A stretch of 64,000 bases of DNA, taken from Isurus oxyrinchus (taxonomy: Eukaryota). Shown here in pieces: positions 6,001 to 54,469 of this stretch. The stretch's first letter is position 1. Each line of letters starts with the position of its first letter. A model generated the notes under the pieces. The model searched no databases, had not been told where the DNA came from, and was given only the letters and a program-made list of their open reading frames with translations. The position numbers and the translations under genes were made by a program. The stretch lies in contig JANJGN010000042.1 of the NCBI GenBank assembly GCA_026770705.1, positions 2,356,001 through 2,420,000 of the forward strand. The letters are read 5' to 3'.

Positions 6001-8750
6001 ATGGGTTAATATAAACTGAGACAGTCTGTATTACAGTGAATACTGAAACAGGTTATGGGTTATTATAAACTGAGACAGTGTGTATTACAGTGAATACTGA
6101 AACAGGTTCTGGGTTATTATAAACTGAGACAGTGTGTATTACAGTGAATACTGAAACAGGTTATGGGTTAATATAAACTGAGACAGTCTGTATTACAGTG
6201 AATACTGAAACAGGTTATGGGTTATTATAAACTGAGACAGTATGTATTACAGTGAATACTGAAACAGGTTCTGGGTTATTATAAACTGAGACAGTGTGTA
6301 TTACAGTGAATAATGAAACAGGTTATGGGTTATTATAAACTGAGACAGTGTGTATTACAGTGAATACTGAAACAGGTTATGGCTTATTGTAAACTGAGAC
6401 AGTGTGTATTATAGTGAATACTGAAACAGGTTATGAGTTATTATAAACTGAGACAGTGTGTATTACAGTGAATACTGAAACAGGTTATAGGTTAATATAA
6501 ACTGAGACAGTGTGTATTACAGTGAATACTGAAACAGGTTCTGGGTTATTATAAACTGAGACAGTGTGTATTACAGTGAATACTGAAACAGGTTATGGGT
6601 TATTATAAACTGAGAAAGTGTGTATTACAGTGAATACTGAAACAGGTTATAGGTTATTATAAACTGAGACAGTGTGTATTACAGTGAATACTGAAACAGG
6701 TTATGGGTTATTATAAACTGAGACAGTGTGTATTACAGTGAATACTGAAACAGGTTATGGGTTATTATAAACTGAGACAGTGTGTATTACAGTGAATACT
6801 GAAACAGGTTATAGGTTATTATAAACTGAGACAGTGTGTATTACAGTGAATACTGAAACAGGTTATGGGTTATTATAAACTGAGACAGTGTGTATTACAG
6901 TGAATACTGAAACAGGTTCTGGGTTATTATAAACTGAGACAGTGTGTATTAGAGTGAATACTGAAACAGGTTATGGGTTAATATAAACTGAGACAGTCTG
7001 TATTACTGTGAATACTGAAACAGGTTATGGGTTATTATAAACTGAGACAGTGTGTATTACAGTGAATATTGAAATAGGTTATGGGTTAATATAAACTGAG
7101 GCAGTGTGTATTACAGTGAATATTGAAATAGGTTATGGGTTAATATAAACTGAGGCAGTGTGTATTACAGTGAATACTGAAACAGGTTATGGGTTATTAT
7201 AAACTGAGACAGTGTGTATTACAGTGAATACTGAAACAGGTTATGGGATATTATAAACTGGGACAGTGTATATTACATTGAATACTGAAACAGGTTATGG
7301 GTTATTATAAACTGAGAAAGTGTGTATTACAGTGAATACTGAAACAGGTTATAGGTTATTATAAACTGAGACAGTGTGTATTACAGTGAATACTGAAACA
7401 GGTTATGGGTTATTATAAACTGAGACAGTGTGTATTACAGTGAATACTGAAACAGGTTATGGGTTATTATAAACTGAGACAGTGTGTATTACAGTGAATA
7501 CTGAAACAGGTTATAGGTTATTATAAACTGAGACAGTGTGTATTACAGTGAATACTGAAACAGGTTATGGGTTATTATAAACTGAGACAGTGTGTATTAC
7601 AGTGAATACTGAAACAGGTTCTGGGTTATTATAAACTGAGACAGTGTGTATTAGAGTGAATACTGAAACAGGTTATGGGTTAATATAAACTGAGACAGTC
7701 TGTATTACTGTGAATACTGAAACAGGTTATGGGTTATTATAAACTGAGACAGTGTGTATTACAGTGAATATTGAAATAGGTTATGGGTTAATATAAACTG
7801 AGGCAGTGTGTATTACAGTGAATATTGAAATAGGTTATGGGTTAATATAAACTGAGGCAGTGTGTATTACAGTGAATACTGAAACAGGTTATGGGTTATT
7901 ATAAACTGAGACAGTGTGTATTACAGTGAATACTGAAACAAGTTATGGGTTATTATAAACTGAGACAGTGTGTATTACAGTGAATACTGAAACAGGTTAT
8001 GGGATATTATAAACTGGGACAGTGTATATTACATTGAATACTGAAACAGGTTATGAGTTATTATAAACTGAGACAGTGTGTATTACAGTGAATACTGAAA
8101 CAGGTTATGGGATATTATAAACTGGGACAGTGTATATTACATTGAATACTGAAACAGGTTATGTGTTATTATAAACTGAGACAGTGTGTATTACAGTGAA
8201 TACTGAAACACGTTATGGGTTATTATAAACTGTGACAGCCTCTATTACAGAAATTACCAATACAATATCTGTATTTATATAAACTGAGAAAGGTTATTTT
8301 GCAGTGATTATTGATATAAGGCATGGATTAATATAAACTGAGACAGGGTCTATTACCGAGATTACTGATACGTGCTATTGATTAACATAAACTGAGACAG
8401 GGTCTATTACAGTGATTACCAATACAAGGTCTATATTGATATAAAGTGTGTCAGGGTTTTTACAGGGATTACTGATACAAGGTGTTGATCACTATCAACT
8501 GAGAGAGGTTCTCTTGCAGTGATTACTAATACAATGTTTGCATTAATATAAACTAAGACAGGATCTCTTGCAATGGTTACTGATACAAGGTATGGATAAT
8601 ATCCACTTAGGCAGGGTTTATTAAAGTGATTACTGATACAAAGTCTGTATTCATATAAACAGCGGCAGGGTCTAGTGTAGTGATTACTGGTAAACGGCCT
8701 AGATTAATATCAACTGCTACAGAACAGGATTACTGATACTGAGCCCAATT
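1..8750. repeat. 54-bp tandem satellite (two related 27-bp subunits); diverged at 1-5570 and 8230-8750, homogenised at about 5570-8230
   Basis: Homogenised unit ACTGAGACAGTGTGTATTACAGTGAAT + ACTGAAACAGGTTATGGGTTATTATAA; AAACTGAGAC recurs at 5581 and 5635 (54-bp period). The array begins before the window. Confidence 0.97.
3889..4112. mobile_element. Short fold-back (inverted) fragment of the Penelope-like element terminus, inserted in the satellite
   Basis: Arms CAGCAGGTCTGGCAGCAT..GAGTCCTCATG and CATGAGGAC..ATGCTGCCAGACCTGCTG match the ends of the 49.9-54.8 kb element. Probable 12-bp TSD TCTATTACA(T/G)TG at 3877-3888 and 4113-4124. Confidence 0.9.
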
Positions 8751-9459
8751 TAATAAAACTGAAGCGAGGCATAAAGAGATAATCTCTGACACAGCACGGA
8801 GTGTAAGTCAACCAGGGATAAATCTGGTGTGGAATCAATTGATGCAGGGCTTTGCGGCATATTGAGAGGGACAGAGAGTAAAGCAGTTATAATTAATGCA
8901 TAACCTAGTGTAATATACAGAGAGATCGGGTTTAGTGTTACATCATTAGAAACATCTTACTGTGCGATATAATAAGTGTATTAATTTCGAATTAACATAA
9001 GCCCCAGCATCACTGATCCATTTGCCAGTGGAACAACTTCTCCCTAAATATTCAAAAACATCCCTCAAACATTGGACCATTTCTGATAAACCTATCTTAA
9101 GATTCTCGTTGATGAGGAGAGCAATCCCAGTTTTTTGTTGTGCAGAGAGTGAGGGGCAGTGCAAACTTAAGTTCCAGGAAATCTTCTGTCTTGTTACTTC
9201 GAAATGAGCATTTAACAATCGTTGACACTGTTATATGGGGCCAATGGAAATAAAGTGCACTGTTACAACAGAGTCAGTCTAAGACACCGGGCTACAAGGC
9301 AACGGATCCCTTACAACTCAATTGATGTGTGTAAGTTTGGAGCCTGCTCCTGAACTTTATACACATAGAACCAAATGCTATAATTTCAAAATAGCAATTG
9401 CAACATGTCCAGTGCCTTGCATTAGTGGCTCACATACATGGACAGTAACCACTACTGAA

Positions 9460-23930: not shown

Positions 23931-25800
23931 GAAATGAACGTCCATATACCCAATGGAGATGAACCTGGACTGTTTGGAAACATTGTTGCTGGGCAGATCT
24001 GTGTATAAATAGGTTCCTTTGCTAACAGCTGGGTTCTTGTTGCCTTGCTCTATTTGATCTGTGAGCAGGAAACTGATTGTTGAAGTTTCTGCACAGCAGC
24101 CACAGATGTTTCCTGTAAATTGAAATGTGAATATTCTCTCCTCCCTGATGGTGGAATGCTGGACTCCTGTCACTGCCTGTTGGGCAGAGATATGGGATGA
24201 ACGTGTTGTTCAACAAACTGGGAATAAATTTAGCAGCAAATGAATCGTTAGGCAATCTTAATCTAAATTGCATTTCTTATGAGATGATATTAAGGAAACT
24301 GTGTTTTGCGTATGGCAGGTGCAGAACAGACTAAATGCGGCAACAACAGTACAATGATTTCGGGATTTTAATTAATTAAGGCCAATTTGATTCTGATAAT
24401 TGCGAAGTTCTTTCACAATCCTGTAACATGGAATGCCAGCTGAGCTGGTATCACACAGATATAAATAACACATTAACTACTCTGATACTAAAGTTTGATT
24501 CATTTAACAATTTTGTAATTTACCCAATGGTCTGCAGACGGTGGAGTCACAATCCCAATCTGGAGACTGGGAACTCATATTATTCACTGAACTGTTAGTA
24601 CAATTGTAATGGCAGGCTTTATATTTTCATATATAACCCGTTAGCACATTTGGTCTTGGCACCTGAAAAGCTGAGCACAACTGGCTTGATATCACCATAA
24701 ATTCAATGATTTCTCATCCTTGGTGCAAATTAACAACATCAAAAAAAAAAATCAAACTCGTGATGCCCCAAATCTCTGAATATAATTTATGGTTTAGTGG
24801 GGTCACCCAGATCGATATTGTTTTATCTGCATTGCTAAATATTTCCCAATGGTTTGTGGGATAAATCTGTCACATCAATTAGAAAGATAGACATGGTGAT
24901 TTAATTCTTAACTAAACAGGGTTCAGCTGCACTGTGCAGCATCATCACACACACATTCCTCGGTGCAAATCTCAACTTCTCCCATTTAGAATCATTCACT
25001 GTGAAATGAAAGAACAATATTCACACTGGTGACCAGAAATCCAGTGGAAAATTGATTCACGGAGGATTGTTTTAAAGTGAAGCTTCACATTTCACGATGG
25101 ATTATATCTGAAATTAAGTGACATTATTCCGAAACTGTCGATGTCTTGGGACAAATATAATAGCTTTCTCTGAACAAATATCAGTAACATTTGTATCTTT
25201 TATCACACAGATAGGGGAACATGGGAATAAAGAAGACATACATTTAACCAGTGCATTTCACAACCACAGGATACCTTAAAGCGCTTTATAGGCAATGAAG
25301 ATTTGTTTGTTTATTTATAAACCTATAATCACCATTGTATTGCAAGGAAAGACAACCGTGAATTTACGTATAGGAGGATCCAACAAACTGCGCTGTGATA
25401 AATCACTAGATAAGCTGATTTTGGGATGTTGGCTGAACGAGAAATATTGGCCCCAGGGGATCTCTCCCTTCATCTTTGGAATAATTCCATGGGTGTGTTT
25501 AGGTCCTTCTGAGAGCAATTGGACACTGAGCACATGTGAGGTGTTTATTGGGAATGTAAAGATTCGCACTGAATCAATTTAAACCTGCTTTGGAGTGAGA
25601 GTATCACATCCCAAAGGATAAATAGACAATCAAAAAGATACGTTTGTGGAACACGGAATATTAATGGTTAATAATTGTTTATACAGCTGGACTCAGACAG
25701 GAAAAAGGAGGAGGAGCCAGGCTGTTAACTGGGGGAGGAGAGTGACTCCCATTCTCCAGCTTTGTCTCTCTCTCTCTCTCTCTTATTTGACTCTAGCTGG

Positions 25801-25808
25801 TATAAATA
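25801..25808 (+). promoter_or_regulatory. TATA box of the VH promoter
   Basis: TATAAATA 98 bp upstream of the leader ATG, preceded by a (CT)n tract. No ATGCAAAT octamer seen in the proximal promoter. Confidence 0.8.
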
Positions 25809-25898
25809 GCGGGACGGTTCAGCTCCTGGTTCACAATCCGCAGGTGTCACTGCGACGGAGAGTCACGCTCCCAAGTCAGTTATACCCAGAGACTGAGG

Positions 25899-25944
25899 AT
25901 GGGATTTGCGCTGTGCCTTTGCTTCTTCTTGGCTTACTTCACCT
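25899..25944 (+). CDS. IGHV: IgH leader exon (MGFALCLCFFLAYFT)
   Basis: 46-nt hydrophobic exon ending in phase 1 before GTGAGT; a 125-nt intron ends at CAG 26069. Confidence 0.93.
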
Positions 25945-26069
25945 GTGAGTATTCCTGACTATATAAGTGATACAATAAAGTCTGCTTCTTGTCTGATATC
26001 GTGTTGCTATTTAAGTTCAATGATTTGATTGTTTTCTAATGTAATTACATTTTTTCCATTCGCTAACAG

Positions 26070-26371
26070 ATGTCCAATCCGCCATTGTGCTGACTCAGCC
26101 GGCTGCAGAGACCGCTAAGCCGGGACAATCTCGCAAACTGTCCTGTTCGGTGAGCGGGTTCAGTCTGGACAGCTACTATGTGAGCTGGGTTAAACAAGTT
26201 CCTGGGAAAGGGCTGGAGTGGCTCCTTGCTTACAGAAAACCCTCGGATACCACGTATTACGCGCCTGGAGTCGAAGGTCGAATCATCCCATCAAGAACTT
26301 CGTCCACATTTTACATTGAGATCAAAAATCTGAGAACCGAAGACACCGCGAGGTATTATTGTGCAGGAGGC
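26070..26371 (+). CDS. IGHV: Unrearranged immunoglobulin VH exon
   Basis: (Y)VQS-AIVLTQP..LSCSVSGFSL..WVKQVPGKGLEWL..EDTARYYCAGG; canonical Cys, Trp and YYC; open frame; followed directly by an RSS. Confidence 0.98.
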
Positions 26372-26410
26372 CACAGCGAACTGAACAAGCCCAGAACTCG
26401 TACATAAACC
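26372..26410 (+). other. VH 23-RSS
   Basis: CACAGCG (26372-78), 23-bp spacer, ACATAAACC (26402-10). Confidence 0.95.
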
Positions 26411-26766
26411 GCAGAAGAATAATTACAGCGAATCATAAGTCAGTATTAGCTCAAAATAGGTTAAGAGATGTGTTTGAACCTAGCTTGAAAAGTTACATTT
26501 TCCAAGGAAATAAAGTGGTGAATAATAAAAACCAAAAATGACTAACTCTGTATATTAAAGAGCATAGATACCGCTTAGAATGTGCACAACTGATGACTAG
26601 GAGCCAAATGGAAATATTAACAAATTATTAGGTGAATGGGGATAATTTTAGCCCAAAGTTCTGCTCCTGAGTAAAACTCTTGGATGAATTGCAATCAAAA
26701 TCTACAAACCTTCTGCTGACTGAAAGGTTTTATTTATACACTGACTCACAGTCAGTGTGTGAGAGC

Positions 26767-26846
26767 AGTATTTGTGCCGGCTTGTGTCACTGTGTTACTA
26801 CATTGGGTCACGGTGCTGTGTATAGCGAACTCCTCATACAAATACC
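26767..26846 (+). other. IGHD: D1 segment (core 26795-26808 TTACTACATTGGGT) with 5' 12-RSS and 3' 22-RSS
   Basis: AGTATTTGT-12-CACTGTG | core | CACGGTG-22-ACAAATACC. Confidence 0.95.
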
Positions 26847-27162
26847 CCAGAGAGGGAGTTTGATCAAATCTGCGATCCGTATCACAGCAGGAAAATCAAA
26901 TAAAATAAATATGACCAACAATAAGGGTTTGAAGGAACACTGAATTACGAAAAATGTATAAAAGTCTCCATTTTTTACTAATTTTGATTGTCTTGCTAAA
27001 TAGGGGCACAGATGTTAAAGGCATATTTCGGTCCGTTTATAAACATAATGAAAAATTCTAACTGAAATATCACAGTGATGTATTCCTCGAGTATTCAGTA
27101 TCAGGTTTCTCAGGCCGCTGTGGATTTGAATCTCTGTATTTCTCATTTAACAGTCCGCCGCA

Positions 27163-27232
27163 TTTTTTTGTCATGGTGCGTCTCACAGTGATACAACTGG
27201 ATGGCACAGCCGTTACTGTTAATGCAAAAACC
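27163..27232 (+). other. IGHD: D2 segment (core 27191-27204 ATACAACTGGATGG) with 12/12 RSS
   Basis: TTTTTTTGT-12-CACAGTG | core | CACAGCC-12-GCAAAAACC. Confidence 0.93.
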
Positions 27233-27556
27233 TCATCGGGGCTAATTGATTGCATTTCGGTCGATGCATTTTGTTTTTTTACAATACAACCATTTTAACC
27301 AAAGCCCAAACTGTGCCTGGAGCTTCCCAATTGACAGGTTTCAAGAGGTGCTAGTGTGTTAATTATTAAATCATTGGCTGCTGCTTTCAATGCATGATCA
27401 TCAGTTACTCTGTGAAATACAGAAAAAAGTGTAATTTATAAACTTTAGAAATTCTTTAACAAATTTACTATTTTGATAAAGCAGGTCATGACTTTACTCT
27501 GCCTCTCCGCTCGGAATTTAAACTAATATTGAATTTCTCCCCTTGTGTGCAGAACT

Positions 27557-27595
27557 GGTTATTGTGTGACCCAGACCAGCGAATGTAACACTGTG
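27557..27595 (-). other. JH 23-RSS
   Basis: GGTTATTGT (27557-65), 23-bp spacer, CACTGTG (27589-95). Confidence 0.95.
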
Positions 27596-27643
27596 ACTAT
27601 GCTGGCTACTGGGGACAAGGGACCATGGTGACGGTGACTGCAG
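27596..27643 (+). CDS. IGHJ: JH segment (YAGYWGQGTMVTVTA)
   Basis: WGQG motif; phase-1 donor G|GTAAG at 27644. Confidence 0.97.
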
Positions 27644-29527
27644 GTAAGAAACATGCCTTCATTCTGTGCTGTTGGATTTGCTTCATTGTCTCATATTTGT
27701 TTATTTTAGACATTAATGTGTTAACCGAAACTTTGCATTGGTGGATTCTGTGTTTACAATGTTTCATTTAATTCTGCCGCAAAGGGATTTAACAATTGCT
27801 TCTCGGCAAAAAAAAAAAAAACAATGGGAGTTTTAAGGACTTGTTTGAGTGATTTGTCTTTTATCTGCTGATGAGGCTTTGTGCCTGGCTTACTTTAACT
27901 ATTTGAGTTTTGTTAAAGGATTTGGTGTTTCTACTGCTGCAAGTTTTGTAATCGACTGAAAGTATTGTGTTTAAAAGTGTTGGAAATAAGATTGTAGACA
28001 GGAAAACGAGTGCTATCAAGGTCAAAATGTCTTTTTAAACTATGGATTTTATAATAAATGTTTGTCATGTTTATTTGTGTTAACTGCGCTGAAAAATATC
28101 AATATAAGGTTGACGAACTTTCACCTTAAATAAGTGAAATGCTACGATAAGTAGGAACAACAGAGTTAACAAATTTCCTGCCAGAATCAAGCTTAAAATA
28201 ATACAACTTGAAACATTGTAATGCTGTAATATTCCTCCCCATATTACTAAAGTATACCGTGAAAATCAAACAATGCATTAAACATGACCCATCGAAATAC
28301 AATTCTTCTGCCATTGTTTCATATTTCTGTTTATTTTAATAAATGACTTGTTCAATGAAAGATGATTTCAGTGCGATGTATTGAGGTTTATTTGAAATGT
28401 TGCATCTGATTCTGCTGAAAGGACTTAGGTAATTAAGCAGTTGTTGGATTCAGTCCCTCGGTGTTCTGATTTGGTGCTAAGTGCTAAGGAGAGTATGTGC
28501 CTTGGGTTACTTTGAACAGTTAAAGCTCGTGGAACTGTTTGATGATTCTACAACGTGTAATGTCGATCACATCAAACATGTGTTGGTTATGTGCTTAAAC
28601 CATTGTGAAGGAGGGTTATAGTTACAAAGCAAACAGGCTTTTTAATCAATATTGAAAGATATATTGATGCATTTTTATTTCAGTGCCAATTGCAGATTGA
28701 ACAATTAATATTTTGTTTCTGATACTCCTATTTAATACTTGAGGTAATAATGCAATGCTAAAGTACATAACCAGCGAAGTTCAACTGTGATGGGGAGTTA
28801 AATGAATATAACTCAAACGACTATAATGCGACAATATTTCCCAAGATTACAACAATAAAAAATAATATTGTTAGACATTTAGCAGATAATCTGTGCTATC
28901 CACAACAATGCTGCAAAACGCAGCACAATTAATAGCAGCCGGACAAATGCAAAGGTTCCAGCAATTTCCATTCTTTTTTTTTAATATAATACACACTGAT
29001 CGCACTGCAGTATTTAGTTCAAACAGTGATTTTAAATTAATTGGTTCCTCCCTGGTTTATGCAGGTTGAAAGGTGCTAATTATTTATCAATATTAAATGC
29101 GTTTCAGCTGGCTAATTTAATATATCTGCCGGGTTGTTGAACCTTTGCTGTGCAGCCAAACAGTTCCTTGAATTTTAGCCCATTATCACTAAGCTAATCT
29201 TAAACGGTTTGCAGTTAATGAATTGCTCAATAATACTCAAATTCAAAGAAAATTCAGAATGCATAAGGCTGGAGATGGACAAACATTGCTATTGAAGCAG
29301 GTTGGCTGTATTATAAATGTAACTTCTGAATTGAAGAACAGCAACTAATCTTGCAGAGCTGTGAGATATCCGGGTTGAATTAAATGGGAGCTACCTTTAA
29401 TTCTCATTAAAATCGTTCTGTTTGCTCGCAGAGTTTCAGTGTCTCGGGTGATGCAAAGGAATTGTTATCTCTCAGTTCTGCATTGATGATTGTGGATCTT
29501 CATTTCAATAAGTAGCATTATATATTT

Positions 29528-29725
29528 AAACAGAAAATGCTGAATAAAACCTCAGCATGACTGGCAGCATCTGTCCATGGAGAAGCAGAGATCTGAAGAA
29601 GAGTCCTACCGATTCGAAATGCTAAGTCTGTTTCTCTCTCCACTGATGCTGCCAGACGTGCTGAGTTTTGCCAGCATTTTCCATTTTTATATCAGATTTC
29701 CAACATCCGCCGCATTTTATTTTCA
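29528..29725. mobile_element. Short fold-back Penelope-derived element with a decayed hammerhead motif, in the J-C intron
   Basis: AAACAGAAAATGCTG..CTGGCAGCATC arm and GATGCTGCCAGACGTGCTGAG arm; CTGAAGA-A-GAGTC-CTACC-GATTC-GAAA at 29593-29619. Confidence 0.75.
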
Positions 29726-31944
29726 TTATATATTTGAAACTCATTTACGTGTAGATTACGGGAATGGTATATCAAAGCTTGGCTGTATTATTATCTAGGG
29801 GAGGCTCCGATAATGGCTACAAACTGGCAGGGATACATTAATTATTAAAAAATAAAACTGCTGTTGAAATGTGGGATGATATTTAAACTCCAGAGTCCTG
29901 CTTCAGTGACTTGAGGATGATGCACTCCATTTTTTATTACCGATATGAGTACCCGAATAGTGTTTGAACAATTTTAAGCTGCCTACTTATAAATCTATCA
30001 TGTGAAATACACGTTTAGAACAGAAGAGCTTTTATGTCGTGCCAACATAATCACAAACATGAAAACTTTACCAGAGTGTAGGTATAGGACCACCTTCTTA
30101 TAATTTTTGGTCATCTTAATTTATTAAAAGTAATATAATGTATTTGTCCGAAAGTGTATGGAATTATTTATTTAATTTAAGAAGTGTCACCTTAATTTAA
30201 ATAAGCCTATTATTAACAAGAGACAAATCAGAAGGAGAATAAAATTATTAACAAATTTGGCATAATGGTGTTAAATATCACCAATATGAAAATAGAGTCT
30301 AAGTTCAGTACGAATTCATTACAAAAAAATCTCTCAAATGTGCTGCGCTGAGTCCAGGATTAAAGTTAAAACTCATGGTGGAGAATTTTTTAAATTATTT
30401 TCAATTAACTTGGAAAGCAACATGTTTCTTAGTCAACTGCCTTCAGCTCCATTGGATGTTGCTGTACAATTTAATTAATTATCTTCGTGTTTTGCCTCAG
30501 CAGTTTCAATGATTATATATTAATCTGAAAGTATGTCAGTGAATAATAGGAGTACAGTGTAAATATCTCCCAATTTGTTAAATTCTTGCTCTGTTACAAT
30601 GTCCCTGTTAGAGACATAAATTACCATGAATGTAAATTATTTTGATGAACCTGTTCTCAGCCAAACTAACTCTAAGGCTGTTGTGAAAACTGCACACAGA
30701 CAGGGAGAAATTAAGGCCCATCAAAGGGAATTTTTCCATTTAGAATCAGAATAATTTCACAGAAGTGACGTGGTCATAAATTTACAAACGTTTTAATCTA
30801 TTCAAACGGATTAATGGATACTGGAGAAATCTATCTTTAATAGACTGATTTTTGCATCGTTTATGTCTGTTCTGTTTCTATGTGTGTGGTCACTGTGCGA
30901 GAATCGGGAGCCTTCTGGCTGTTTGTGAACTTCCTGGTTCATTGTCCTGTAATTCAGGGAATTCATTTCGAACCATTTATTTAAGAAGTTTGTATATCCG
31001 AGAAAGGTGCAAATCTGTTCTAAAGTTTGAGAAGGTGCCTCAGAAATCAGATCAGTATTCCAGTTTGTGGAATTCAGAAGGAAAGCAAAATGTAGAAAGA
31101 TATTTTTCTGTTCAGTGTTTGCTGTATCAGAGCCGGTGGTTTGTTGATGGTCCAGTCTAAGCACAAGTTTTAACTAACAATGCGGAATAGAGGGCGTTTT
31201 AGAATGCATCCCACCATTACTGTTCCTGAAATACAGCGCTTCACAGGACTGTGCAAAGAGACTTTTAGTATAATTCACTTGTTCTGTATCTGACATGAGA
31301 GTGTTGGCATTGTCAATGGTCAAGGAACTTTAACCACTATCAAACATATTAATTGCTCCGAATTAGATATGTAAAAGTAAATGCTTAAATTCCTCCAATG
31401 AAGTAGCAGATCGTTAATTTAACGTACATTTCATTCTTAAAAAAAAGCTAAGTTTGTGATGATTAAACATTTTCAATATGAGATAATATTTGAATCAGAT
31501 TGGCCTGATCTAAAGCTCAATTTCAGGACAGTTACAGGAAGTGACGGTAACGTTACCTTCTGCGATATGATCGAATCTGAAAATAAATTGAGCAACTTAA
31601 ATGGACATTATGGTGCCTTACCCCGTGTCTCATACAAACTACGGTGGGAAGGAAAGCTGGAAAAATATGAGTTTAACTTAACTCAATGCACAACCTGATT
31701 CCAACTGCCCGAAGGACATTTGATGAACTATCAGAGAGGCAGTTTTACTCTTGTTCCAAGGGCTTTACTAGGGCTGTGGGTTTTATGTGGAACTTCAATG
31801 TTCTTCTATCTTGTATCTAATCAGTACAGTCTGTGAACTGTAAACATTTGATTATGTGGTGGAGATGAAACACCTTTTTCTGGACATGTATCTATTCATG
31901 CATCCATTTTTCATCCAACGATGCAAAGATCGATATATTGAATG

Positions 31945-32067
31945 GTCTATCTATCTATCTATCGATCGATCTGTCTTTCTACATATCTGTCTACCTGCCT
32001 ATCATGTCTATCTGTCTATCTCTCTCTCTCTCTATCTTCTATCACTCTCTATCTCTATCTCTTTCTA

Positions 32068-32101
<34 letters not shown>

Positions 32102-32360
32102 CAACCATCTGTTTATCTGCCTGTCNNNNNNNNNNNNNNNNNNNNNNNNNNNNNNNNNNNNNNNNNNNNNNNNNNNNNNNNNNNNNNNNNNNNNNNNNNN
32201 NNNNNNNNNNNNNNNNNNNNNNNNNNNNNNNNNNNNNNNNNNNNNNNNNNNNNNNNNNNNNNNNNNNNNNNNNNNNNNNNNNNNNNNNNNNNNNNNNNNN
32301 NNNNNNNNNNNNCTACCGATCTCTTTAACTCTCTATCTATCTATCTATCTGTTTATCTAA
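31945..32360. repeat. (TCTA)n/(CT)n microsatellite containing a 187-nt assembly gap (32126-32312)
   Basis: Direct inspection. Confidence 0.97.
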
Positions 32361-33147
32361 CCAAGATAGCTGATAATAATTGATTATTTGTAAACATCAT
32401 TGTGCATTGGCAAATTTGGAGAGTTAATTCAGAATTGTGATAGACCGAAAGCTAACTATCCATGCTATCAAATAGTCTCATTGAACAATTCTGGGTCATG
32501 CTTTATAAAAGTGCTAAAAAATTGCCTGTAAGTAATGAAACTAGTCGATCCACCCGTTGGAGTTACATAATCTTTAGAGCAAATGCTGCCAAGCATCATC
32601 CAAGTTTATCCTCTGAAAACGACAACGTGTTGATCATGAAACTAGAATAGATTTGTGTAAAAACCCCTCTGGCTCACTGATGTCCTTCCTGGAAGATAAT
32701 CGGCCATCCTGGCCCAGAGATAGCTAACTGTTTCTGTATTACAATAGTCATTTGCTGGTGATAAGAGGTTGATAGTAAAATACTTTAAGCGAGAGCTCAT
32801 TGGAAATAATGTGGAAGCGTGTAAAGTGAAAGTGTTTGAGGAATGATTGATGTTTTCTTCAATAGAGGAGCAAGGGCTGGAGGAAGCCCAGGTTACAATA
32901 TCCCGTATTTAACTCGCAATTATGTGGCCTCATGTAAAGTATTTCCCTTTTCCGACTTGTGCAACATCTTGTGTACAAGACTGGCCATCAAGGCAGCGTG
33001 TCCTGTCGGGCATATCAACTCCTAAATGCAGTTTATTACCAAGATATTTTGGAAATTAATTATATCAATATTAAACTTCGAACAATTTGCTTATTTCATA
33101 ATCACGAATCACATTTTTAAGTTGTTCAATTGACTCTTAATTCGCAG

Positions 33148-33447
33148 TGACACCGTCTCCCCCCACCCTCTACGCTCTGCTCTCCTCCTGTGAACAAGCA
33201 AACACTGCCGGCTCCATCACCTACGGCTGTTTGGCTGCGGACTACTCCCCCGAAATCACCAGCGTTTCCTGGAAGAAAGATCAAGAGACGATCACAGCTG
33301 GATTGAAGACTTACCCATCAGTACTGAACAAGAAGGGAACCCACACCCTGAGCAGCCAGTTAACCATCACCGAATCAGAGGTGGGAAGCAGCACAATCTA
33401 CTGCGAGGTTCGAAGGAGCAACTCGGTCTGGCAGAAGGAAACGCCAG
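33148..33447 (+). CDS. IGHM: IgM Cmu1 exon
   Basis: (V)[51 protein letters not shown]; 300 nt, phase 1/1, CAG acceptor and GTTCGT donor. Confidence 0.97.
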
Positions 33448-33529
33448 GTTCGTGTTGTGGGATGCACAGGGCGGCAGTGGCGGGGCTGGGTGAAGGGTGA
33501 ACGTGGTCAGCAAATGAGTTATGTTCAAA

Positions 33530-33815
33530 TTCTGCATCACATGGGTTAGAATGGATTGAGAATATTGTGTATAGTTCAGGTGCCCATATCACACTTAGTG
33601 CATTGTGGATACCTGTATCCTCCACATCACACTTAGTGTGATATGTACAGCTGTGATTTCCGCATCACAGTTATTGTACTGTAGACAGTTTTTACTTCCA
33701 CATCAAAATGTAGTGTACTGTGTATAATTAGGGCCTCCACATCATAATAGGTGTATTGTGTGCAGTTATTCCCTCCAAATCATATCGAATATACCATATG
33801 TAGTTCTGGTTTCCA
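33530..33815. repeat. Degenerate 38-bp minisatellite (about 7 units) in the Cmu1-Cmu2 intron
   Basis: Repeating ACATCACACTTAGTGT..TGTG..CAG....TCC units. Confidence 0.75.
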
Positions 33816-34354
33816 TGTAAGGAAAATGCTACAGGGGCGTTGCAATCGGAGCTAAACTATTTACAAGGACATTACCAGAGCTGATAGATTACTTCTGTCA
33901 TGTAATTGCGAACAGGTTGGTGGTCAATTCTCTACAAAATAAAAAATTGTGGTGTGACCAAATAAAGGTCCTCAGACTTCTGAAATAATTTGATACATTA
34001 GACAAGAATTAGAGCTCATGTTTACAACAGAATGTTAAAAAGAAACGATTGGCTATTCTGAATCTTTACACAAAGAGTGAGCAGAATGTGGGAATTCCTG
34101 TAGGTGAGATGTTACCGAAACTCTGTTCAGGGGAATCTTAATAGATACATGAGGGAGATTGTAAGGGAGGTTTTTTTTTCTGCTGAGAGGTGAAATAGGG
34201 CGAGAGGATGTTCCTGTGGATCCTAAACTCCAGCATTGTACTATGGGGCCGGTTGGCCTGGTTCTGTCCTGTGGATTTTATGTAATTAGTTTTACAGTTT
34301 TTAATTTTTGGTTTGAAGCAATTTTAATTCCAAATAATATATATTTTCTTGCAG

Positions 34355-34666
34355 TTATTGTGGTGCATCATCCGACTGTTCTGCTCACCGTGAGCCCCAG
34401 TGAAGAAATCACAAGCAGCAGATTTGCAACCATCGTCTGTTCAATCATTGATTTCCGTCCAAATTCAATCAAGGTGAAATGGCTGAAAAATGGACAAGCC
34501 ATGGCCTCCGGCTTCGTCACCTCTCCCGGCTTTGAAGTGAACAGGAACTTCTCGGCGACCAGTCGGTTGACAGTCCCCGCTGGGGACTGGTTCAGTCACA
34601 CGCTCTATACCTGCCAGGTCACTCATAAAGGGGTCACCCAAAGCCGAAACATCACCAAACCTGAGG
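34355..34666 (+). CDS. IGHM: IgM Cmu2 exon
   Basis: (V)[51 protein letters not shown]; 312 nt, phase 1/1. Confidence 0.97.
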
Positions 34667-35129
34667 GTAAGAGACACAACCCGAGGAAGTTCAAGGCCAT
34701 TCTTGGTGTCAATCTCTTCCAAGCCAAGAAATATTTTGGAATGATTAAACGTCAGAGATTGTGTCCCATTTGCCAACTTGCCCATTTGTGTTTCCTTCCA
34801 AAGGAAACAAGAACACACTAAAGAAATCCTTTCATTTATAAAGCGCCCTCCCCAGCATCAGATTCTCCCAAAACACTTAGCAGCCAATGAATGACCGTGG
34901 AAATGTGCTCATTGTGGTAAAGTAGAATATTCAGCAGCGATTTGCTGCACAACAGTCACCAAGACCCTGGGACATGATGCTCACAGGATTTATTTATTTA
35001 TTTTTTGATTTCATTCTGTTTGTTCAGGTACACATGTTGTCCAGGAAATAGACGCACTTTAGCTCAGCATTTCGAACGTTTTCTTTTCATTTTTATTTCA
35101 AATTTCCAGCAATATTTGGCTTCTAGAAC

Positions 35130-39068: not shown

Positions 39069-39460
39069 CTAAATATCCGCGGGAACCGTCCGTCTCTGTC
39101 CTCCTGCCCCCGGCTGAAGATGTCTCCACACAGAGATTCATCTCCCTCAGCTGCTTAGTGAGAGGTTTCTCCCCCCGAGAGATCTTTGTCAAGTGGACCG
39201 TCAATGACAAGCCGGTGAATCCGGGGAACTACAAGAACACCAAGGTGATGGCGGAGAACGGCAATAACTCCTTCTTCATGTACAGCCTGTTATCTATTGC
39301 AGCGGAGGAGTGGGCCAGCGGCGCTTCTTACTCCTGTGTGGTGGGACATGAAGCCATTCCCTTGAAATTCATCAACAGAACGGTTGATAAATCCAGCGGT
39401 AAACCGAGTTTTGTGAACATTTCCCTTGCACTGATGGACACCGTTAATTCATGTCAATGA
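39069..39460 (+). CDS. IGHM: IgM Cmu4 exon plus secretory tailpiece (internal donor for the membrane form after 39398)
   Basis: (P)[46 protein letters not shown]|[19 protein letters not shown]; tailpiece has an N-glycan site and penultimate Cys; G|GTAAAC at 39399. Confidence 0.98.
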
Positions 39461-44668: not shown

Positions 44669-44796
44669 ATTCCACAGACCGCATCTGGATTGAAGACAAT
44701 GAGGACGATAACGGGAACATCCGGACAACCGCTTCCACATTCATTGTCCTGTTCTTCCTGAGCATTTTCTACAGCACTGCCGTCACTCTGGTGAAG
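44669..44796 (+). CDS. IGHM: IgM TM1 exon
   Basis: (D)STDRIWIEDNEDDNGNIRTTASTFIVLFFLSIFYSTAVTLVK; acidic spacer plus CART-type TM motif; TAG acceptor in phase with the Cmu4 internal donor; GTGAGA donor. Confidence 0.96.
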
Positions 44797-50280: not shown

Positions 50281-52293
50281 TTAAAATAATGGAAATAGGT
50301 GGGAAAAGAAAAATCTATATAATTTATTGGAAAAAAAAGGGGGAAACATAAATGGGGTGGGGATGGGGGAGGGAGCTCTCGACTTAAAGTTGTTGAATTC
50401 AATATTCAGTCCGGAAGGCTGTAAGGTGCCTAGTCGGAAGATGAGGTGTTGTTCCTCCAGTTTGCGTTGGTCTTCACTGGAACAATGCAGCAAGCCAAGG
50501 ACAGACATGTGGGCAAGAGAGCAGGGTGGAGTGTTAAAATGGCAAGCGACAGGGAGGTTTGGGTCATTCTTGCGGACAGACCGCAGGTGTTCTGCAAAGC
50601 GGTCGCCCAGTTTACGTTTGGTCTCTCCAATGTAGAGGAGACCACATTGGGAGCAACGAATGCAGTAGACTAACTTGGGGGAAATGCAAGTGAAATGCTG
50701 CTTCACTTGAAAGGAGTGTTTGGGCCCTTGGACGGTGAGGAGAGAGGAAGTGAAGGGGCAGGTGTTACATCTTTTGCATGGGCATGGGGTGGTGCCAAAG
50801 GAGGGGGTTGAGGAGTAGGGGGTGATGGAGGAGTGGACCAAGGTTTCCCGGAGGGAGCGAGCCCTACGGAATGCCGATAAGGTGGGTGAAGGGAAGATGT
50901 GTTTGGTGGTGGCATCATGCTGGAGTTGGCGGAAATGACGGAGGATGATCCTTTGAATGCGGAGGCTGGTGGGGTAATAAGTGAGGACAAGGGGGACCCT
51001 ATCATGTTTCTGGGAGGGAGGAGAAGGCCTGAGGGCGGATGCACGGGAGATGGGCCGGACACGGTTGAGGGCCCTGTCAACGACCGTGGGTGGAAAACCT
51101 CGGTTAAGGAAGAAGGAGGACATGTCAGAGGAACCGTTTTTGAAGGTAGCATCATCGGAACAGATGCGACGAAGGCGAAGGAACTGGGAGAATGGGATGG
51201 AGTCCTTACAGGAAGCGGGGTGTGAGGAGCTGTAGTCGAGGTAGCTGTGGGAGTCGGTGGGTTTGTAATGGATATTGGTGGACAGTCTATCACCAGAGAT
51301 TGAGACAGAGAGGTCAAGGAAGGGAAGGGAAGTGTCAGAGATGGACCACGTGAAAATGATGGAGGGGTGGAGATTGGAAGCAAAATTAATACATTTTTCC
51401 ACGTCCCGACGAGAGCATGAAGCGGCACCGAAGTAATCATCGATGTACCGGAGAAAAAGTTGTGGAAGGGGGCCGGAGTAGGACTGCAACAAGGAATGTT
51501 CCACATACCCCATAAAGAGACAGGCATAGCTGGGGCCCATGTGGGTACCCATAGCCACACCTTTTATTTGGAGGAAGTGAGAGGAGTTGAAGGAGAAATT
51601 GTTCAGCGTGAGAACAAGTTCAGCCAGACTGAGGAGAGTAGTGATGGATGGGGATTGTTCGGGCCTCTGTTCGAGGAAGAAGCTAAGGGCCCTCAGACCA
51701 TCCTGGTGGGGGATGGAGGTGTAGAGGGATTGGACGTCCATGGTGAAGAGGAAGCGGTTGGGGCCAGGGAACTGGAAATTGTTGATGTGACGTAAGGTGT
51801 CAGAGGAATCACGGATGTAGGTGGGAAGGGACTGGACAAGGGGAGAGAGAAGGGAGTCAAGATAACGAGAAATGAGTTCTGTGGGGCAGGAGCAAGCTGA
51901 GACGATCGGTCTACCGGGGCAGTTCTGTTTCTGGATTTTGGGTAGGAGATAGAAGCGGGCCGTCCGAGGTTGGGCGACTATCAGGTTGGAAGCTGTGGGA
52001 GGGAGATCCCCGGAGGAGATGAGGTCAGTGACGGTCCTGGAAATAATGGCTTGATGTTCAGTGGTGGGGTCATGGTCCAGGGAGAGGTGGGAGGAAGTGT
52101 TTGCGAGTTGACGCTCAGCCTCTGCGATGTAGAGGTCAGTGCGCCAGACAACAACAGCACCACCCTTGTCTGCGGGTTTGATGACAATGTCAGGGTTGGA
52201 CCTGAGAGAATGGAGTGCAGTAAGTTCAGAGAGAGACAGGTTAGAATGGGTGAGAGGAGCAGAGAAATTGAGACGACTAATGTCGTGCCGACA
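50281..52293 (-). CDS. Penelope-like RT plus GIY-YIG endonuclease; frame open but 5'-truncated
   Basis: IKPADKGGAVVV, LLPKI.K..PGRPIVS, MDVQSLYT, GVAMGT, RYIDD, Cys knuckle, LVYCIRC..LYIGET. Confidence 0.9.
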   Translation of the reverse strand, partial: CRHDISRLNFSAPLTHSNLSLSELTALHSLRSNPDIVIKPADKGGAVVVWRTDLYIAEAERQLANTSSHLSLDHDPTTEHQAIISRTVTDLISSGDLPPTASNLIVAQPRTARFYLLPKIQKQNCPGRPIVSACSCPTELISRYLDSLLSPLVQSLPTYIRDSSDTLRHINNFQFPGPNRFLFTMDVQSLYTSIPHQDGLRALSFFLEQRPEQSPSITTLLSLAELVLTLNNFSFNSSHFLQIKGVAMGTHMGPSYACLFMGYVEHSLLQSYSGPLPQLFLRYIDDYFGAASCSRRDVEKCINFASNLHPSIIFTWSISDTSLPFLDLSVSISGDRLSTNIHYKPTDSHSYLDYSSSHPASCKDSIPFSQFLRLRRICSDDATFKNGSSDMSSFFLNRGFPPTVVDRALNRVRPISRASALRPSPPSQKHDRVPLVLTYYPTSLRIQRIILRHFRQLQHDATTKHIFPSPTLSAFRRARSLRETLVHSSITPYSSTPSFGTTPCPCKRCNTCPFTSSLLTVQGPKHSFQVKQHFTCISPKLVYCIRCSQCGLLYIGETKRKLGDRFAEHLRSVRKNDPNLPVACHFNTPPCSLAHMSVLGLLHCSSEDQRKLEEQHLIFRLGTLQPSGLNIEFNNFKSRAPSPIPTPFMFPPFFSNKLYRFFFSHLFPLF

Positions 52294-54469
52294 TTTTTCT
52301 CCCTCCACCTGGACCCCTCCCTCTGGATTCTTACCTTCTCTTGATCTTTCCATTGAGAACTGTCGGCGCGACATTAGTCGTCTCAATTTCTCTGCTCCTC
52401 TCACCCATTCTAACCTGTCTCTCTCTGAACTTACTGCACTCCATTCTCTCAGGTCCAACCCTGACATTGTCATCAAACCCGCAGACAAGGGTGGTGCTGT
52501 TGTTGTCTGGCGCACTGACCTCTACCTCACAGAGGCTGAGCGTCAACTCGCAGACACTTCCTCCTACCTCTCCCTGGATCATGACCCCACCACTGAACAT
52601 CAAGTCATTGTTTCCAGGACTGTCACTGACCTCATCTCCTCCGGGGATCTCCCTCCCACAGCTTCCAACCTGATAGTCGCCCAACCTCGGACGGCCCGCT
52701 TCTATCTCCTACCCAAAATCCACAAACAGAACTGCCCCGGTAGACCGATCGTCTCAGCTTGCTCCTGCCCCACAGAACTCATTTCTCGTTATCTTGACTC
52801 CCTTCTCTCTCCCTTTGTCCAGTCCCTTCCCACCTACATCCGTGATTCCTCTGACACCTTACGTCACATCAACAATTTCCAGTTCCCTGGCCCCAACCGC
52901 TTCCTCTTCACCATGAACGTCCAATCCCTCTACACCTCCATCCCCCACCAGGATGGTCTGAGGGCCATTAGCTTCTTCCTCGAACAGAGGCCCGAACAAT
53001 CCCCATCCACTACTACTCTCCTCAGTCTGGCTTAACTTGTTCTCACGCTGAACAATTTCTCCTTCAACTCCTCTCACTTCCTCCAAATAAAAGGTGTGGC
53101 TATGGGTACCCGCATGGGCCCCAGCTATGCCTGTCTCTTTATGGGGTATGTGGAACATTCCTTGTTGCAGTCCTACTCCGGCCCCCTTCTACAACTTTTT
53201 CTCCAGTACATCGATGATTACTTCGGTGCCGCTTCATGCTCTCGTCGGGACTTGGAAAAATGTATTAATTTTGCTTCCAATCTCCACCCCTCCATCATTT
53301 TCACGTGGTCCATCTCTGACACTTCCCTTCCCTTCCTTGACCTCTCTGTCTCAATCTCTGGTGATAGACTGTCCACCAATATCCATTACAAACCCACCGA
53401 CTCCCACAGCTACCTCGACTACAGCTCCTCACACCCCGCTTCCTGTAAGGACTCCATCCCATTCTCCCAGTTCCTTCGCCTTCGTCGCATCTGTTCCGAT
53501 GATGCTACCTTCAAAAACGGTTCCTCTGACATGTCCTCCTTCTTCCTTAACCGAGGTTTTCCACCCACGGTCTTTGACAGGGCCCTCAACCGTGTCCGGC
53601 CCATCTCCCGCGCATCCACCCTCACGCCTTCTCCTCCCTCCCAGAAACATAATAGGGTCCCCCTTGTCCTCACTTATCACCCCACCAGCCTCCGCATTCA
53701 AAGGACCATCCTCCGCCATTTCTGCCAACTCCAGCATGATGCCACCACCAAACACATCTTCCCTTCACCCACCTTGTCGGCATTCCGTAGGGATCGCTCC
53801 CTCCGGGACACCCTGGTCCACTCCTCCATCACCCCCTACTCCTCAACCCCCTCCTATGGCACCACCCCATGCCCACGCAAAAGATGTAACACCTGCCCCT
53901 TCACTTCCTCTCTCCTCACCGTCCAAGGGCCCAAACACTCCTTTCAAGTGAAGCAGCATTTCACTTGCATTTCCCCCAAGTTAGTCTACTGCATTCGTTG
54001 CTCCCAATGTGGTCTCCTCTACATTGGAGAGACCAAACTTAAACTGGGCGACCGCTTTGCAGAACATCTGCGGTCTGTCTGCAAGAATGACCCAAACCTC
54101 CCTGTCGCTTGCCATTTTAACACTCCACCCTGGTCTCTTGCCCACATGTCTGTCCTTGGCTTGCTGCATTGTTCCAGTGAAGACCAACGCAAACTGGAGG
54201 AACAACACCTCATCTTCCGACTAGGCACCTTACAGCCTTCCGGACTGAATATTGAATTCAACAACTTTAGGTCGAGAGCTCCCTCCCCCATCCCCACCCC
54301 ATTTATGTTTCCCCCTTTTTTTTCCAATAAATTATATAGATTTTTCTTTTCCCACCTATTTCCATTATTTTTAAATATTTTAAAATCTTTTATGCTCTCC
54401 CCACCCCCATTAGAGCTATACCTTGAGTGCCCTACCATCCATTCTTACTTAGCACATTCGTTTAGATAA
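52294..54469 (+). pseudogene. Penelope-like RT plus GIY-YIG, 5'-truncated, in-frame TAA at 53033-53035
   Basis: Same motifs as the left arm; GAA>TAA nonsense change and D>N in the first RT aspartate motif (MNVQSLY). Confidence 0.92.

Follow-up and report, generated by a model that had tools for sequence, protein, structure and literature searches.

The 64,000-nucleotide stretch of Isurus oxyrinchus DNA analysed here (the window) carries an intact, unrearranged IgM minicluster with an IgW-like leader and V. It is probable that this cluster is a germline hybrid of an IgW V and an IgM constant region, created by ancient capture of an IgW-lineage leader and V and later amplified. The hybrid is a family of about 47 assembly copies (family A) and not a single gene, a point that was missed in the first reading of the sequence. 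That reading offered two origins, a germline hybrid or a retained ancient lineage; the hybrid is favoured, and it is itself old, having a counterpart in the cloudy catshark.

Anatomy and copy number of the cluster

The cluster consists of leader, V, D1, D2, J, four C exons, a secretory tail and a first transmembrane exon, TM1 (Table 1). Leader and V exon splice into a single open frame with the leader, FR1, FR2 and FR3 motifs first listed from the sequence, and the one V, two D and one J are flanked by recombination signals in the arrangement V-23, 12-D1-22, 12-D2-12 and 23-J. The spliced C1-4, secretory tail and TM1 have AG/GT at every junction and no internal stop and give an open IgM-type chain, its tail with a penultimate cysteine, in line with the earlier claim that all C exons are of IgM type. 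A TM2 exon could not be placed with confidence. The cluster has neither the pre-joined VDJ nor the missing C-mu2 of germline-joined (IgM1gj) clusters, nor the D, J and multi-domain C region of the IgW isotype, and its complete C-mu sets it apart by description from the Ig-like V associated with TCR-delta, which have no Ig C of their own and belong to a TCR locus. The chain retains the C-mu1 cysteine and the interface residues of FR2, and would be expected to pair with a light chain and to give ordinary membrane and secreted IgM. Farther downstream, at 50281-54469, lie tandem retroelement ORFs of reverse-transcriptase type (746 and 477 aa, by eye).

Table 1. Features of the cluster in the window, with V segments of presumed TCR type located elsewhere in the genome
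Feature	Position	Strand	Support
Upstream block common to the C-less V-D-J cassettes of family X	25634..25751 (approximate)	+	local alignment
TATA-like box, putative function	25801..25807	+
Leader exon, IgW-clan type, GT donor	25899..25944	+	splice 25944>26070 in runs X1 and X2
V exon, probable IgW V lineage, open frame, short IgM-like patch in early FR1	26070..26371	+
V recombination signal, 23-bp spacer	26372..26410	+
V-D1 interval, putative switch from IgW to IgM ancestry	26411..26752	+	overlapping contigs, independent runs
D1 (26795-26808) with 12- and 22-bp signals, IgM type	26767..26846	+
D2 (27191-27204) with 12/12 signals, IgM type	27163..27232	+
23-bp signal and J (27596-27643), IgM type	27557..27643	+
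N stretch in microsatellite of J-C intron, no mis-join	32126..32312	.	11 of 11 paralogues colinear and N-free
C-mu1, family-specific A type	33148..33447	+
C-mu2, A type	34355..34666	+
C-mu3, 91% identical to canonical IgM of the same genome	38267..38572	+
C-mu4 and secretory tail; internal donor after 39398 for the membrane form	39069..39460	+
Transmembrane exon TM1	44669..44796	+
TCR-delta-like or NAR-TCR-like V (presumed labels)	L111:2267-2545, 6425-6604; L112:2295-2570; L121:5034-5345, 9168-9347	-

When the genome was searched with the V (150 of 716 candidates scored), at least 36 open-frame copies of family A at 88-100% and at least 11 broken copies were found among the scored candidates. 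Contig C88 gave five V at 65-66%, and C26 and small contigs gave many at about 45-57%. The search with C-mu1 (150 of 512 candidates scored) returned at least 49 matches at 89-99%, here called the A type, and about 62 at 61-74% (hand count, 37 on C26), with one broken A-type remnant on C26; the A type makes up 49 of about 111 matches, nearly half, haplotype duplicates included. Every one of the 47 family-A V is followed on its own strand, after 6.4-11.3 kb, by an A-type C-mu1, and for two of the 49 A-type C-mu1 no V occurs among the scored matches. The first 30 family-A copies fall into 24 groups at 99.5% and 12 at 99%. As haplotype duplicates are likely, the counts are upper bounds of the true loci, though lower bounds of the search. 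Eight alike family-A clusters, one per contig (C132, C336, C342, C358, C502, C506, C523, C544; L107-L108), share one broken V and have a longer J-C intron; they are either a recently multiplied pseudogene or assembly redundancy. Broken A-type exons C-mu1 to C-mu3 also lie at C26 5.91 Mb (L050/L090), with no V among the segments listed for roughly 28 kb upstream.

The five clusters on C88 are assigned to IgW from their anatomy and their grouping with the Swiss-Prot IgW V W26. They have three D, a different J and 8-10 C domains (two clusters followed to the end), which is the established anatomy of IgW. A first IgW C domain of this genome and that of white-shark XP_041031595 are alike but for about 3 of 105 residues (by eye), which marks the host as a lamnid-like shark. 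The clusters on C26 are canonical IgM, with V 75-77% identical to houndshark IgM V. Germline-joined VDJ occur among the canonical IgM clusters (L075, L082, L084; C26 and C242), and fused or missing D segments in clusters of both families (L023, L065, L077).

Ancestry of the V gene and the constant exons

Against six shark IgW V (four rows from the same genome, white shark and horn-shark W26) the V has an identity of 63-67%; four batoid and bamboo-shark IgW rows reach 51-60%, and canonical shark IgM V 43-56%. The leader resembles those of IgW and family X, unlike the canonical IgM leader. In a tree of 39 rows and 96 columns, from which four near-duplicate family-A rows were omitted, family A groups with the catshark V (98/97) in a clade that is sister to horn-shark W26, the IgW V of the same genome and family X (99/95) and lies inside a clade of all IgW V (97/84), while the canonical IgM V, chimaera included, stand separate at 100/98. 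The V nests among the V of IgW clusters and outside the canonical chondrichthyan IgM VH family (nurse, horn and hound shark and chimaera V), and an AU test rejected a single clade of all IgM-linked V (p 0.031); the earlier note had named nesting in the ordinary IgM VH clade as the outcome that would speak against its reading. Identity, leader type and tree agree with the IgW-like character that it gave to leader and V, and it is likely that the V belongs to the IgW V lineage, the V alignment being short and the AU values modest.

The early part of FR1 had been described as IgM-type. Canonical IgM V is indeed matched there at nine consecutive informative sites (p about 0.005, post hoc), of which three are confined to the window copy among six family copies compared; this short patch is real, but over its full length FR1 is nearer to IgW, with an identity of 56-64% versus 44-56% for IgM within the genome. 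A breakpoint inside the V was considered and rejected, as site patterns number 40 for IgW and 27 for IgM overall and the FR1 patch, a hint only, forms no clean tract. The short FR3 was likewise dropped as a marker, since it is present in bony-fish and tuatara V and therefore not diagnostic of the IgW lineage. A PDB sequence search and a protein atlas queried with the V gave generic VH matches only, and no full-length chain carrying a family-A V was found among 90 longer-protein candidates, a number at which the test is weak.

From 26753 to 27777 the DNA, coding and non-coding, aligns over about 1 kb at 67-70% with four of six canonical IgM clusters and partially with the other two, so that D1, D2, J and the intervening DNA bear out the D-D-J layout as IgM-type. 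Alignment of the window with four IgW clusters is limited to the V exon and a 60-70 bp piece of J, and these clusters have three D and a different J, compared to two D and an IgM-type J here. The V-D1 interval is alignable to neither IgW nor canonical IgM, and because its flanks are IgW-type and IgM-type the change of ancestry is placed within it, the putative crossover lying between the V signal and D1. The spacing from V to D1 is alike in family A, IgW and canonical IgM (416-438 bp), which would favour an exchange in register. The upstream block matches family X (local score 72-75, shuffled maximum 39-46), and no match is detectable in IgW (28-30) or canonical IgM (39-40), where scores are at background level. 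As the promoter matches family X and not IgW, it may be that something other than an IgW cluster was the immediate donor.

C-mu1 and C-mu2 are of a distinct, family-specific type relative to canonical IgM. C-mu3 and C-mu4 are 91% alike between family A and canonical IgM of the same genome, versus 72% and 84% to the catshark counterpart, a pattern that suggests homogenisation of the Fc end with canonical IgM. In the C-mu1 tree the canonical types form a clade (100/98), horn-shark IgM comes next (93/89), and the A types lie outside as an unresolved grade; they are not a clade, lamnid and catshark grouping in 0% of bootstraps, and apparently share ancestral states. The A types group in the C-mu2 tree at 93/95, just under starred support. 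Deep forks are open in a concatenated C1-C3 tree (quick mode) and likewise in trees of C1+C2 and C3+C4.

Age and origin of the family

In the cloudy catshark, GCB60864 has a V 81% identical to that of the window, and GCB60865 has an A-type C-mu1 at 84% (versus 66% to its own canonical type) and C-mu2 at 79% (versus 66%). The two are consecutive accessions, the source contig of each being 159,436 bp, and the order of accessions, rather than DNA, suggests that the V adjoins the A-type C. A second catshark IgM has a canonical C-mu1. Since both C-mu1 types occur in catshark and lamnid, both predate the lamniform-carcharhiniform split, and on these sequences the join of V and C-mu is also older than that split. 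The C-mu trees would allow an origin before the divergence of the horn shark. Horn-shark IgM carries a canonical V on a C-mu1 similar to the A type, which would fit the canonical V being the older of the two partners.

It is likely that the capture took place by non-allelic recombination between neighbouring IgW and IgM clusters before the lamniform-carcharhiniform split; clusters of the two isotypes are linked in four elasmobranchs (PMC12227049). Crossover between the V signal and D1 would have brought leader and V from IgW to D1, D2, J and C from IgM. The hybrid cluster would then have been amplified in the lamnid lineage, with C-mu3 and C-mu4 kept alike with canonical IgM and with V, C-mu1 and C-mu2 remaining distinct. 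In B cells RAG would join V-D1-D2-J within the cluster, with junction bases added, and the predicted product is a light-chain-paired membrane and secreted IgM with an IgW-type CDR1/CDR2 scaffold.

It is unlikely that family A is instead a retained ancient lineage, in which IgM clusters always had two V lineages and one shark IgW V family derived from, or shared an older ancestor with, the family-A V. The position of A-type C-mu1 outside horn-shark and canonical C-mu1 shows that the cluster type is old, and the deep branches of the V tree are open. However, batoid and bamboo-shark IgW V branch below family A (97/84 and 94/90), monophyly of IgW V excluding family A is rejected (AU test, p 0.022), and canonical V are found on chimaera IgM and on horn-shark IgM, the latter with the similar C-mu1.

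Family X has an IgW-lineage V, one D, an IgM-type J and a promoter related to that of the window (10 matches, C26 31.1-38.7 Mb; L079, L086, L119, L123, L124), and appears to be an orphan V-D-J cassette. Its upstream block, its similar leader, its IgM-type J region (82% over 104 bp), its location near TCR-type V segments, the lack of a C exon in about 87 kb downstream of one copy and the survival of a single clade of families A and X under test (p 0.28) are all consistent with a two-step origin, in which an orphan V(D)J cassette of the TCR-delta/NAR-TCR region, and not an IgW cluster directly, supplied the V. Such an origin is nevertheless quite improbable, as family X already has IgM-type D and J, would be explained more simply as a hybrid copy that lost D1 and C, and groups with IgW in the free tree (97/86).

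An assembly mis-join, or a somatic IgW-to-IgM switch product from the sequenced tissue, might be suspected from the N stretch between J and C-mu1 and from a nurse-shark report of IgW V placed somatically on IgM C (PMC4279169), but is hardly credible: the 11 fully fetched paralogous clusters are all N-free and colinear with the window on both sides of the gap (about 84-98%), all 47 V-C pairings are of one kind, four independent runs cover 30, 30, 30 and 29 of 30 bins over 25400-28400, with overlapping contigs that bridge the V end into D1, and a switch would move a whole rearranged VDJ, whereas the D and J here are IgM-type and unjoined, which excludes a fixed somatic switch. The blocks on either side of the gap are thus not mis-joined, an error for which the first reading had left room.

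Several other loci of the genome may be mentioned. V segments of presumed TCR-delta-like type and apparent NAR-TCR V cassettes lie between canonical IgM clusters on C26, two of them apparently germline-joined. Clusters of IgNAR type, a label that we take from their V and C patterns, occur on the same scaffolds as, and between, hybrid IgM clusters (L091-L099; C38, C42, C126 and C26 at 0.69 Mb). L109 (C21 111.48 Mb) and L100 (C5136), with a joined V-J-like exon or several C1 domains, match all three heavy-chain classes poorly and are possibly non-rearranging Ig-like genes. In the region studied by PMC12227049, isotypes are reported as not intermingled, and V domains of intermediate type are described between clusters.

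Expression, relation to known families and significance

Four runs that are presumably RNA, from three samples and three studies under two organism labels, were aligned on 25800-34700. The leader splice is present in runs X1 and X2 and a V-to-D1 joint in X1; in X3 and X4, V is joined to J in frame across 32 and 36 junction letters. One 536-nt contig (X4 record 24) runs from V through junction and J into A-type C-mu1, with differences at 6 of 250 positions in V and 7 of 211 in C-mu1, which answers the proposed search for RNA of this V spliced to C-mu with a close copy. The spliced joints mark the contigs as transcripts, and close copies, in contigs of two studies, are therefore rearranged, transcribed and spliced to C-mu; the contigs are assembled from paralogues or relatives at about 97% and are not single molecules of the window cluster. 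Among the family-A V (26 distinct sequences), pN/pS comes to 0.19 for the frameworks, 0.29 for CDR1 and 1.7 for CDR2 (based on few changes and on pairs that are not independent), the CDR value being about 1.0-1.1 in five canonical V and 3-4 in four IgW V. One CDR2 is common to 22 of 33 family-A copies. With germline CDRs so nearly uniform, germline diversity is low and most variety must come from the junction. It is tempting to speculate that family A has an innate-like role.

The canonical elasmobranch IgM miniclusters (nurse shark Groups 1-5, horn shark main VH) have the same V-D1-D2-J layout within 2 kb and similar signals, D/J sequences, C-mu exons, secretory tail and TM exon; the window differs in its V, leader, promoter, C-mu1 and C-mu2 and in a C region of 6.3 kb compared to about 3 kb. 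The shark IgW V family (W26, P83907, and the five C88 clusters) shares leader type and FR3 length and pattern with the window V, whose FR2 is identical to that of the IgW rows of the same genome. The IgW clusters differ in their D, J and C domains, the first of which is 29-30% identical to the window C-mu1, and no promoter or intron similarity was found between them and the window.

At the nucleotide level the window V is 61-63% identical to the canonical V of its own genome; the second VH family of the horn shark is presumably about 60% identical to the main family. A divergent nurse-shark VH family, in Rumfelt's work of 2004, is said to be orthologous to that horn-shark family. By comparison, functional nurse-shark IgM V are over 75% identical among themselves (PMC2435157). 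The second horn-shark family is monotypic (Hinds-Frey 1993, PMC2191167) and likewise places a divergent V on IgM, but is single copy there, compared to about 47 assembly copies here. Likened by description, family A may be its orthologue, as the first reading had suggested. In nurse-shark somatic IgW/IgM switching (Zhu 2012, Zhang 2013, via PMC4279169) an IgW-type V also comes to lie on IgM C; there a rearranged VDJ moves in single B cells, whereas the join in the window is germline, unrearranged, upstream of D1 and inherited. A germline IgM cluster with an IgW V was not described in the accessible parts of the literature searched (including PMC2191167, PMC2435157, PMC4279169, PMC5192425, PMC8692893, PMC12227049 and bioRxiv 2022.06.22.497154), a partial coverage by which novelty is not established. 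Table S1 of PMC12227049 may list family-A loci of white shark and catshark. Possibly family A is a known single-copy family for whose hybrid make-up and large expansion no description was found, and a large hybrid IgM subfamily may have been overlooked so far.

Shark IgM and IgW are usually seen as separate V families that meet by somatic switching only (PMC4279169, and in part general understanding). A germline, expressed, old and amplified family with IgW V and IgM C would mean that a V can cross isotypes heritably, with a breakpoint that can be mapped, and would offer a testable identity for the long-unexplained single-copy VH family of the horn shark. Surveys of the IgM repertoire that rely on canonical V primers would fail to detect a large share of the loci in these sharks, and an IgW-like V on an IgM cDNA would not necessarily be a switch product. 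We tentatively raise the possibility, which is still the less probable view, that family A is an unrecognised second IgM subclass of galeomorph sharks, with a captured IgW V, C-mu1 and C-mu2 of its own, nearly invariant germline CDR1 and CDR2, lamnid amplification to almost half of the IgM loci and a semi-fixed, innate-like repertoire. If true, such a subclass would stand as the heritable equivalent of IgW/IgM switching in sharks and would serve as a living model for V sharing between IgM and IgD.
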